In this document: in pieces, positions 11,555-14,500 of the stretch
Position numbering within the stretch: the stretch's first letter is position 1
Layout: the number at the start of each line of letters is the position of its first letter
NCBI GenBank assembly: GCA_001244265.2
Contig: CDLV01000004.1
Coordinates: forward strand, 1,426,001 to 1,490,000
Direction of reading: 5' to 3'
Source of the DNA: Microbotryum violaceum
Lineage: Eukaryota
Length of the DNA stretch: 64,000 bases
Position numbers and translations under genes: made by a program
Notes under the pieces: model-generated
The model's database searches: none
The model's input: the letters and a program-made list of their open reading frames with translations, nothing else
Told to the model about the DNA's origin: nothing

Positions 11555-14500
11555 TGTAAGGCCCGTGCGCCTGGGCCTTAGGAAGAGGGGACGCGCGCCT
11601 GGGCACTCTTAGTCTCTCTCCAGCGACTGATACGAGTGTCCAGTGTCAATTCTACATACTTTGGTCCTGTGATCCTTGTCGTCGTCGCTCAGGTGTACAC
11701 TCCAACGGGGTGAATTACACTTTTTTTTTCACACCGGTCAAAGACGCACACTGCCACGTGCGCCAGCGACACACCCACGGAACGAACAAACAACAACGAA
11801 CGGTAACAGACGAACATGGCGCGTGGCAAGAACTCCACCGCCCAACCAGCGCCACCATCGGCACCAGAGGAAAGGGAGGACAGCTCGGACGATGAACAGG
11901 AGGTTGCAACGATGCCAAGGGGCATGAAGCTCAGCGCGCCCAAGCTTGCGAACGGCACGAAACTCACTCTCTCCTCGATCCGCGCATTCCTCAACGACAT
12001 GGACAACATGTTCTTCCAGTACCAAGTGAAGAACATGCGACTAAAGATAATGTTCATCGCCAACCACATTGAACACGAGGCGCTCAAGGATTGGCTGGTG
12101 ACGGCGACGGAGGAACGCACGTGGGACAAGCTTAAGGTCGCCTTCATCCGCAAGGCACTACCCTTGGATTTCGCCTTCACGACAGAGCAGCGTATTCGCC
12201 ACAGCCACCAAGGCAACCACGACTACGCGACGTGGGCTTCGGGACTTCGGGCCTCACAGCTGCAGCTCGGCCAGACCGCCCTCAGCGACATCGAGTTCAT
12301 CAAGATCCTACTGTTCAACATGGACCCTCAATTGAGCGTTGTTCTACGACAGAACGACCTTCTGTTGGGTACTGGCCTACACCAAGATGATTTAGACTAC
12401 GTGGCGGCTTCAAAGGCGGCGCTCCCCAAGCTCAAGACATTATCTTACGAGGTGTTCGAGCGATTGGCAAGATCCCAATGGAATGTGATCATAGCGGTTC
12501 GTCCTGTAGCAACTCCCCGAACGCAAACCTCGACTACGAGCCCAAAGACCAGCTCTGGCCGACCTTTCGTGACCTCGGCGACCACTCGACGCAGGCCGAC
12601 AAGACTCACGGACCCGATGAAGGATTATCTCTCGGAGAAGGAGGGATGCTTTAGCTGCAGACGCATCAACACGGATCACCGCGCGAGCGATTGTACAGCC
12701 AACTGGCAGCAGGCACCGGATGTCCCGGAGGGGTGGGCCGAATTCGAAAAGAAGACGGCGAAAGCGGCTAAGAACGACACCCTCCATCAAATTGCCGAAA
12801 ACTCAGAAGACGACATCTCAACGGACGAAGAAAACGAGTACGCCCCTCAGTTCATCTCCACCATTCCCATCACTCTGCACAACAACACAAAGTCAAAGAC
12901 GTTGCAGGCACTTGCTGACTCTGGGGCCTCTTCCTCCTTTATCGCAGATAAGGTGGTTGAGAAACTGGGGTTAGTCATGCATCGTCTCCCTGTTCCTACA
13001 TTGGTCAAAACTGCAATCAAAGGCCAAGCACGCGCGTTTCATGTTACCTCGTTTGTAAAGATTCCGATCACGCTCGAGAATGGCGCATGGGAAGCGGGAC
13101 ACACGATTCTGAAGGTGGCTAAACTGCAGGAGCCCTTGGAAGTGGTACTGGGGTTCAACTTCCTTGTAAAACACAAGGTTACCATCGACTTCGCGGCACA
13201 CAAGATCCTGGTGCCACATCCGACCATGCCTGACGTAAAGATCGACCTTCTTGCGCCGGTCTTCGGACCCCACCCCAGCGAGCCGCGGTGAGGAATGCCA
13301 AACGAAGCGATAAAGCTCGGATCAACTGGCGTGCAGTGATTGCCTACATCGACGGGGTCCAGCAAAGGGAAACGGAGTTGACGGAGTTGCGACGGCGGGA
13401 GGCAAAGCTACGGGTCGAGTTCGCGGATCGGTTCCCGGGGGATATTCCTCCGGTTTCGACGTATGAATCACCGGTCCGACACCGAATCGAGCTGAAGGAC
13501 GGAGCAACAAAACCGAACTTGAAGGGTTATCGAGCGGCACACCGTTACCGGGAAGCCTGGAAGCGCCTGATTGATCAGCACGTCGCCAATGGCCGCCTTT
13601 GAAAGTCGTCATCAGAGTTCGCGTCCCCGGCGTTTGTCATCCCAAAGAAAGGTATGGATAAGGACCCGTCAATCCAACCACGCATGGTCTGTGACTACCG
13701 AGTACTCAACGAAGGGACGGTCCGAGATCGCACACCTCTACCACTTCCGGACGAGATTCTGTCGGTCTCCTCAAACGCGCGATTCTGGGGGAAGATCGAC
13801 ATGACAAACTCCTTCTTCCAAACCAAGATGGCCGAGGAAGACATCCGGAAGACGGCGATTGTGACACCGTGGGGATTGTACGAGTGGACGGTAATGCCAA
13901 TGGGACTCTGCAACGCCCCGGCAACGCATCAGCGCCGAGTCAACGAGGCACTCGGAGACCTTATCGGGAGCGTGTGTTTCGTGTACCTCGATGACATCAC
14001 AATCTTTGCCGACACCTTGGAGGAACATGAACGACGGGTGCGACTAGTCCTGGAGGCGCTGAGACGGGCGGATCTGTACGTATCGCCGAAGAAGACGGAA
14101 CTGTTTGCTGCCGAGTGCTTTTTCCTCGGCCACCAGATCACTCGGGAAGGCATCAAGGTCGATCCTGACAAGGTGGAGCCGATCGAACAGTGGCCGCGAC
14201 CAAGGACGGTGAAGCAATTGCGGGGATTCCTAGGTCTGGTGCAGTATCTGCGGAAGTTCATCGACAAGCTTGCGGATTTGACGGCGGTTTTAGTCCCGCT
14301 GACACGGAAAGGGGTGCATGTCGACGAAGGCTGGACGGGAGGGCACGACAAGGCGTTTGAGGCAATCAAGTCCTTGGTGGGCAACCTTCCTTCTCTACAT
14401 CCCATTGACCATTCCGACAAGGGCGACCCATTATGGCTGATGACGGACGCGAGCAATCGGGGAATCGGGGCGGCACTCAGTCAAGGAAAGCAATGGCAGA

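Follow-up and report, generated by a model that had tools for sequence, protein, structure and literature searches.

Long terminal repeat (LTR) retroelements are known from experiment to start minus-strand synthesis either on a tRNA, whole or half, or on a 5' self-primer as in Tf1, and elements with 'no recognisable primer-binding site (PBS)' have stood as an unsolved case in both fungi and non-seed plants from at least 2001-2010 onwards. In the passages of PMC4600332, PMC10085805 and PMC7175516 that deal with them, the Tf1/sushi chromoviruses (Tf1, Tf2, Tj1 and Tosmo) are described as having a U5 hairpin with flanking duplexes, the 'pretzel'. Self-priming has been predicted for the Tcn1 clade in the relevant passage of Neumann 2019 (PMC6317226), and a 2020 review (PMC7175516), in its passage on Cryptococcus, credits Goodwin and Poulter 2001 with proposing novel priming mechanisms for Tcn2-5. 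The account of SM-Tcn1 in Novikova 2010 (PMC2864245), as far as its description of the leader goes, gives this element neither a tRNA site nor a self-priming site, calls the mechanism unclear and reports a conservative, thymine-rich stretch that separates the 5' LTR from gag. Here we describe the gypsy elements of a 64,000-nucleotide stretch of Microbotryum violaceum DNA (GenBank assembly GCA_001244265.2, contig CDLV01000004.1, positions 1,426,001 to 1,490,000 of the forward strand; hereafter the window), in which each 5' LTR is followed by one base and a tract of eight or nine T. Our results suggest that, in a clade of fungal gypsy elements, it is a poly(A) tail, probably their own, and not a tRNA from which reverse transcription starts.

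An oligo-T tract adjoins the 5' LTR of the gypsy elements

The window is a nest of LTR retrotransposons, the limits of which we set by self-comparison, LTR pairs, 5-bp target duplications and polypurine tracts. Gypsy-1 has Pfam matches to RVP_2, RVT_1, RT_RNaseH, Integrase_H2C2, rve, SH3_Tf2-1 and Chromo, and its domains follow the order protease, reverse transcriptase (RT), RNase H and integrase with a C-terminal chromodomain, as in Ty3/gypsy chromoviruses. Partial sets of these domains are found in Gypsy-2 and Gypsy-3, and the remaining retroelements of the window are copia elements according to Pfam. LTR ends of the form TG...CA, a polypurine tract before the 3' LTR and 5-bp duplications (GGTTG, ACAGG and CCTGT) agree with membership of the Metaviridae. 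The pol of the best-preserved element is at most 85% identical to RT-RNaseH-integrase proteins of Microbotryum and 48-54% identical to those of other Pucciniomycotina yeasts, which points to a Microbotryum-like basidiomycete as the host.

At all six gypsy 5' LTR junctions (four Gypsy-1 copies, Gypsy-2 and Gypsy-3) the LTR-terminal CA is followed by a single spacer base, C in five junctions and A in one, and then by T9 in Gypsy-1 and Gypsy-3 or T8 in Gypsy-2. This bears out, at each junction, both the tract coordinates and the rule of one base followed by T8 or T9 that had been proposed in a first-pass annotation of the window. T8 is far more frequent in the window than expected: its 13 overlapping matches, in eight distinct tracts, compare with an expected 1.88, and none of 100 shuffles gave as many as 13. 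Six of the eight tracts lie exactly one base past a gypsy 5' LTR, and the other two (35360 and 39248) are unrelated to LTR junctions. The 3' LTRs of the window gypsy elements, like those of the relatives described below, end at CA without a T tract.

The three families, described earlier as divergent, are not unrelated: Gypsy-1, Gypsy-2 and Gypsy-3 have in common the LTR start TG[T/C]AAGG and the motif TCCTGT[G/C], and their polypurine tracts are alike. Because the LTR start and the polypurine tracts are shared, we treat the families as related rather than independent, and common descent therefore accounts for part of the likeness among them.

The T-type junction extends across a clade of relatives

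Using a profile of 20 chromovirus pol proteins, we retrieved 80 metagenomic loci; a scan of viral contigs found no relative. Of the 15 loci whose LTR pairs are complete, 12 show CA at the border of the 5' LTR, followed by C or A and then T8-9. The other three comprise one with a decayed tract (T4GT3), one that is unclear, and L062, which carries a classical TGGTAGCA-type site and is the only relative with full LTR pairs (1/15) to have a tRNA-type site. Altogether the T-type junction was present in 29 of the 80 loci, in 28 of them as the motif located 2.0-3.5 kb upstream of the pol match (a count that includes contigs with a single or collapsed LTR) and in L026 after a shared LTR, while 30 of the 80 loci have too little upstream sequence for the junction to be judged. 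Conservation of the tract among relatives, proposed earlier as a check, was thus confirmed, and the trait described for three families is indeed present in them, with the correction that this scope was too narrow for a feature that is clade-wide among metagenomic relatives.

The junction is constant in its dimensions. Tract length was 8 (22 junctions) or 9 (13 junctions) in 35 of 35, and the spacer between the LTR-terminal CA and the tract was a single base except in 1/35 junctions, where it was two bases. Beyond the tract, no sequence that a single cellular RNA could match is conserved across families. For the RNase H-integrase core we computed a FastTree tree on 82 of the 83 rows, leaving out one with short coverage; the tree has a midpoint root, no outgroup and no named reference elements, and its deep split is given without a support value. 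All T-type elements fall on one of the two major branches of this pol tree. The motif-less loci on the same branch all have at most 2.6-2.8 kb of upstream sequence, and there is no adequately covered counterexample among them. On the other major branch, the motif was found in 0 of 11 well-covered loci.

A second T run, 6-10 nt long and a few bases upstream of the polypurine tract, was observed in L009, L013, L020, L023, L027, L036 and L074 and is weak in the window's own elements. It resembles the U-box of retroviruses and Ty1.

The sequence past the tract is complementary to the LTR

Directly past the T tract are 4-7 nt, which we call X', that are complementary to an LTR segment, X, located 13-63 nt before the tract. 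We examined one element per family group with the match anchored at the first base past the tract. Anchored X:X' matches of at least 4 nt were found in 23/23 family groups and of at least 5 nt in 17/23, compared with 30% and 15%, respectively, of 506 cross-family pairs. The first such test covered 16 elements whose LTRs are full; their anchored lengths added up to 79, compared with 63.0 +/- 4.5 for shuffled LTRs, and 0 of 1000 shuffles reached this sum. Compensatory changes in X and X' occur within related groups (for example, TGTTC/GAACA versus CGTTC/GAACG). A second helix, Y:Y', usually follows X:X' past a small internal loop, examples being CTTTGGTC:GGTCAAAG in Gypsy-1 and helices of 8-11 bp in L013, L018 and L020. 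The duplex between leader and LTR has a mean energy of -14.9 kcal/mol when the LTR is the element's own versus -10.2 for cross pairs, with the own LTR ranking first of 23 in seven cases and within the top three in 14. A MAFFT alignment of 20 junctions lost the register of X, and the anchored and cross-family script tests were used instead.

The module as a whole reads, in RNA, Y-X-(A)-U-rich-hairpin-UUCCA-C-U8-9-X'-Y'. Compared with shuffles, the last 36 nt of the LTR fold with a mean z of -1.68 (15/23 below -1 and 11/23 below -2), and a clear U5 hairpin is missing in short-U5 families (8/23 with z above -1). The first-pass annotation had assigned each window LTR a terminal stem-loop. This stands for Gypsy-2 (z -3.63, 0/200 shuffles), Gypsy-3 (z -2.67) and the Gypsy-1b copy (z -2.24) but less so for a mutated Gypsy-1a 5' LTR copy, in which the hairpin is weak (z 0.28); these four make up the shuffle-controlled folds of the window, with copy A of Gypsy-1a at 11690-11735 outside the set. 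In copy A, the 3' arm of the stem is altered (GGGGTGAA versus GGGGTGTA in the 3' LTRs). That the hairpins differ in sequence from family to family, as had been described for the window, also holds for most families outside it.

When the leader is folded alone, most of the 23 elements form a bipartite Y/X:X'/Y' stem around the hairpin, and the tract is nearly unpaired, with 0-3 of its bases paired in all but one of the 23. Because this layout matches that around retroviral primer sites and the Tf1 'pretzel', the predicted leader fold strongly argues that the T tract is the primer-binding site; it is silent on what binds there.

Just before the U5 hairpin there is a conserved (C/T)AGTG motif, both in the relatives and in the window (48999-49003 and 11693-11698). 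It can pair with CACU, which is made up of the CA that ends the LTR, the C of the spacer and the U that opens the tract, and by prediction such pairing can extend the U5 hairpin onto the start of the primer site.

Comparison of the junction with known primer types

The first-pass annotation had found no TGG-type PBS, and we likewise found no TGG after any window gypsy LTR. A tRNA gene search was negative for the window and for the 80 metagenomic loci, and the 64-kb window contains no tRNA gene and no Rfam family. Two window copia elements of two families, which served as controls, have the sequence GGTTATGAG directly after the 5' LTR. We take this to be a half-tRNA-iMet type of site, complementary to the anticodon stem-loop of tRNA-iMet; tRNA-derived priming is therefore in use by other elements of the same host. 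The GGTTATGAG-type site does not occur at gypsy junctions.

We also searched each gypsy element for a Tf1-type primer. Over the 25 nt past each gypsy LTR there is no exact complement of at least 7 nt in the element's own LTR, the longest being at most 6 nt. The energy of the duplex between a tract probe and the own LTR, with G:U pairs allowed, is within the range of shuffled LTRs (z -2.0 to +1.4, 16 elements). A Tf1-type complement to the tract itself is excluded at this sensitivity by the exact-match and duplex-energy tests, and the search for a complementary transcript end that had been suggested as a check accordingly gave none to the tract in the own LTRs. The gypsy elements thus lack the LTR complement of about 11 nt abutting the 5' LTR that is typical of Tf1; they do have the U5 hairpin and the duplexes flanking the site, with the hairpin weak or absent in short-U5 families. 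No A8 run is present inside the window gypsy elements, and the poly(A) tail is therefore the only A run in the element RNA.

The region where X ends resembles a poly(A) site

Around the end of X in 23 elements, A makes up 34-35% of the bases at -30 to -10, the first base past X is A in 13/23, and positions +2 to +10 contain 5% A and 44% T. In its composition this region looks like a fungal poly(A) site. When folded with the site, X followed by A12 pairs better than the LTR segment with its genomic continuation by 5.5-9.7 kcal/mol in 23/23 elements. The distance from a TATA-like box down to the end of X varies with the family within 40-133 nt, being 40-60 nt in compact LTRs and 75-133 nt in other families.

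One contig has an end at the junction. L045 (positions 1-58) opens with a full adapter remnant, the sole one among the 80 loci, fused to AC, T9 and the leader, that is, 2 nt before T9. This single, anecdotal junction may be the end of a replication intermediate at the border of U5 and the primer site, which would fit priming by the element's own tail, or an assembly artefact. There are no poly(A)-ended contigs among the T-type loci, and a search of the window for X followed by an A run gave one match, with a mismatch, which is at chance level. Two other contig ends were rejected as probable assembler artefacts: that of L042, exactly at X+A, since the contig start is the exact LTR start, and that of L006, past an X-like motif, since it lies exactly 127 nt into the LTR.

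A model of priming by the RNA's own 3' end and its alternatives

The reading that we prefer, tentatively and at somewhat less than an even chance, is that the minus-strand primer-binding site has the T tract at its core and that priming is likely to be by the polyadenylated 3' end of the element itself. Cleavage and polyadenylation would occur directly past X, which would mark the R/U5 border, and the genomic RNA would end in ...Y-X-AAAA(n), contiguously complementary to U8-9-X'-Y' beside the 5' LTR. Because X' always abuts the tract, X and the A's would form one continuous helix with the site, and since the A's past X could be supplied by the tail alone, the RNA's own 3' end is favoured as the primer. 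The base composition where X ends and the better pairing of X with A12 point the same way. The annealed terminus would consist of the last bases of R and the first 8-9 A's of the tail, and the RNA would thereby be circularised; the 5' copy of Y-X would pair less well, having no A run. Through trimming, or with a short tail, the annealed tail would present a 3' OH opposite the spacer, the trimming being comparable to that of the Tf1 5' self-primer. Reverse transcriptase would then copy U5 and R, and the first strand transfer could occur within one molecule because the strong-stop DNA would stay on the RNA's own 3' end. Self-priming of this kind from the 3' end, with an intramolecular first transfer, would be a third priming route of LTR retroelements, common to a clade of basidiomycete chromoviruses, and we regard this as possible rather than probable.

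Several points weigh against priming by the own tail. The model depends on four points that we infer from sequence: that X marks a poly(A) site, what the primer is, that trimming occurs and that the transfer is intramolecular. The X:X' and Y:Y' complementarity is explained equally well by a cis stem in the 5' leader, which is the predicted minimum-energy fold of the leader alone. A strict length of 8-9 is not an obvious outcome of pairing with a long, variable tail and needs a trimming or measuring step, and a helix of nine A:U pairs is weak. Constraints on the promoter or on structure could account in part for the poly(A)-like composition. In compact LTRs, the TATA-like box at 40-60 nt before the end of X implies that R is as short as about 10-30 nt and that Y-X is near the RNA 5' end, as it would be for a Tf1-type primer, so that a displaced Tf1-type mechanism stays in play. 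No poly(A) loose end was found among the listed contigs of four sequencing runs, which are DNA-like. The lack of a tRNA-type TGG site at 6/6 window gypsy junctions was judged by motif. The X:X' complementarity is ambiguous between a primer made of X and poly(A), a U5-leader stem in cis and a displaced Tf1-type 5' self-primer.

The stem in cis leads to an alternative that we consider unlikely, in which the Y/X:X'/Y' U5-leader stem and the U5 hairpin expose the U tract in a loop and any poly(A) or oligo(A) 3' end primes in trans, whether the tail of the co-packaged genome or that of a cellular mRNA, with X unrelated to a poly(A) site. The leader alone folds in this way in most of the 23 elements with the tract mostly unpaired, the U5 hairpin has the support of the shuffles (mean z -1.68, 15/23 below -1), and the layout matches the U5-IR and U5-leader stems of avian sarcoma-leukosis virus. 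It also matches the Tf1 'pretzel' as described in the relevant passages of PMC10085805. Presentation in cis would, however, leave unexplained why X' starts at the first base past the tract (23/23) and why the end of X has a poly(A)-site-like composition, and a primer duplex of no more than 8-9 A:U pairs would be very weak. If instead the mRNA starts at or near Y, then Y-X could pair with X'-Y' and be cut past X, as in a displaced version of Tf1-type 5' self-priming. The U tract would be copied first and would serve as a fixed templated spacer of 9-10 nt, and integrase would remove the long tail beyond CA. The 4-7-nt complement between LTR and leader with its second helix is consistent with this, a fixed tract length suits a spacer, and the TATA-like boxes 40-60 nt before the end of X in compact LTRs place the start near Y. 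Tf1 cDNA itself keeps a primer-site tail for removal by integrase. For the chromovirus relatives of the Tf1/sushi and Tcn1 groups, self-priming is predicted in the passages on these groups in PMC6317226 and PMC7175516. Still, a spacer role does not explain the strict U homopolymer, and in the other families the TATA-like box is 75-133 nt before the end of X, which would place Y-X away from the RNA 5' end. Moreover, the 3' LTRs end at CA without a tract, so a tail of at least 20 nt would have to be removed at every integration, and the adapter junction of L045, if it is a real molecule end, precedes the tract. We therefore hold a displaced 5' self-primer to be improbable.

The tract could, lastly, be bound by an A-rich cellular RNA or by a U-tract-binding protein, or have a role in packaging, dimerisation or translation with priming elsewhere. 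This gains from the fact that the own tail as primer is something that we infer. It is at odds with the position of the tract exactly one base (two in 1/35) past the LTR-terminal CA, since minus-strand synthesis must begin at this site because the LTR ends there. Nothing beyond the tract is conserved across families for a single cellular RNA to match, no Rfam family matches, and canonical tRNAs have CCA as their 3' end. We consider such a role very unlikely.

Other features of the window

The positions of the elements and of their junctions are listed in Table 1. Gypsy-1b copy D is about 78% identical to Gypsy-1a and is interrupted by copy C, Gypsy-3 and a solo LTR.

Table 1. Positions in the window of the gypsy elements, their junctions and the copia controls.
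Feature	Position	Strand	Remarks
Gypsy-1a copy A	5' LTR 11555-11719; 3' LTR end at 16600	+	5' LTR in short form, without the 59-nt segment
Copy A 5' LTR parts	Y 11659-11666; X TGTG 11668-11671; U5 hairpin region ~11696-11716	+	
Copy A primer-site module	spacer C 11720; T9 11721-11729; X' CACA 11730-11733; Y' GGTCAAAG 11736-11743	+	
Gypsy-1a copy B	20581-24940; 5' LTR 24718-24940; spacer 24717; T9 24708-24716	-	target duplication GGTTG
Gypsy-1a copy C	43142-48244; 5' LTR 48021-48244; spacer 48020; T9 48011-48019	-	full length
Gypsy-1b copy D	5' LTR 40536-40759; X TGTG 40707-40710; spacer 40760; T9 40761-40769; X' CACA 40770-40773	+	
Gypsy-2	16905-26291; 5' LTR 16905-17090; 3' LTR 26106-26291	+	target duplication CCTGT; contains copy B
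Gypsy-2 junction	X TGTC 17051-17054; U5 hairpin 17064-17088; spacer A 17091; T8 17092-17099; X' GACA 17100-17103	+	
Gypsy-3	48799-57568; 5' LTR 48799-49032; 3' LTR 57394-57568	+	contains truncated copia
Gypsy-3 junction	X TGTC 48985-48988; U5 hairpin ~49002-49031; spacer 49033; T9 49034-49042; X' GACA 49043-49046	+	
Control copia 1	53788-53799	+	GGTTATGAG directly after 5' LTR
Control copia 2	4552-4563	-	GGTTATGAG directly after 5' LTR

A segment of 59-60 nt that starts with GTGAG, ends with AG and is bordered by 23-24-nt direct repeats is variably present among the LTRs of one family, even within one element. It was found at 48902-48961 in the Gypsy-3 5' LTR, at ~48107-48164 (minus strand) in the copy C 5' LTR, and in the LTRs at 2706-2929, 16377-16600, 20581-20804, 24718-24940, 43142-43365 and 40536-40759. 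It is missing from the copy A 5' LTR, the copy D 3' LTR and the Gypsy-3 3' LTR, and the short LTR form also occurs in contigs of other sequencing runs (joints 48106>48165 and 48080>48172). The segment could be an intron-like sequence, or its loss a deletion between the direct repeats. One run-X3 contig omits 58 nt at 46489-46548; read on the plus strand, and hence antisense to Gypsy-1a copy C, the omitted piece has GT..AG ends. There is a G12 run at 25951-25962, at the integrase/chromodomain end of Gypsy-2, that is likely a slippage or frameshift site. Between transposon nests, a fragment of a host ubiquitin C-terminal hydrolase gene (Peptidase_C12, E 2.2e-27) is located at 38353-39120, and the T8 tract at 39248 that is unrelated to LTR junctions sits just downstream of it.

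Comparison with known systems

That the tRNA site is missing and the leader is T-rich is partly known already. The first-pass annotation had left it open that such a site might be unreported, which overstated its novelty in view of the thymine-rich, PBS-less leader described for SM-Tcn1 in the passages on this element in Novikova 2010 (PMC2864245). Compared with that description, the elements studied here also have a conserved thymine-rich leader with neither a tRNA site nor a self-priming site; the likeness is one of leaders as described, not of placement in the Tcn1 clade by an RT/integrase tree. The fixed T8-9, the X:X' rule and the spread across a clade are not part of the accounts of SM-Tcn1 and Tcn2-5 in the relevant passages of PMC2864245 and PMC7175516. 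A full-text literature search, which did not cover Goodwin and Poulter 2001, found no fixed oligo-T site, X:X' rule or poly(A) priming in LTR elements. As far as searched, what is new is T8-9 as a clade-wide trait, together with the covarying module and the own-tail model, all of which are directly testable.

What had been the absence of a PBS becomes a defined, testable module, composed of CA, one base, U8-9 and an X' complementary to a fixed place in the LTR, that is spread across a large clade of Basidiomycota elements. LTR annotation tools that require a tRNA site will under-call or mis-score this clade, for which the motif provides a simple rule. If true, the own-tail model would tie polyadenylation to replication and would explain how very short LTRs can work.

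In the accounts of the Tf1/sushi group cited above, as far as they describe the primer site, these are likewise fungal chromoviruses without a tRNA site and with a U5 hairpin and flanking duplexes. In Tf1, the first 11 nt of the mRNA pair with a site abutting the LTR, whereas here the LTR-abutting bases are U8-9 and have no complement in the LTR. Unlike in Tf1, the LTR complement starts past the tract and is contiguous with it only if an A run follows X. Contiguity of X with the tract therefore needs the poly(A) tail, the sole possible source of an A run past X.

Avian retroviruses have a hairpin at the end of U5 and a U5-leader stem to the bases directly 3' of the primer site, which together enclose the site. 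The elements described here have the same enclosing layout as a predicted fold, with the difference that the avian site binds the 18-nt 3' end of a tRNA and the enclosed site here is a U homopolymer. In Ty3, both RNA ends help to hold the primer through a bipartite 5'-3' site. Both ends of the RNA are thus involved in Ty3 and in the own-tail proposal, but the primer of Ty3 is still tRNA-iMet. In LINE-type elements, a poly(A) tail that has annealed to T-rich DNA is where reverse transcription starts, with the nicked DNA target as the primer. The poly(A) RNA is the template in LINEs; the own-tail proposal would be the reverse, with poly(A) as the primer.

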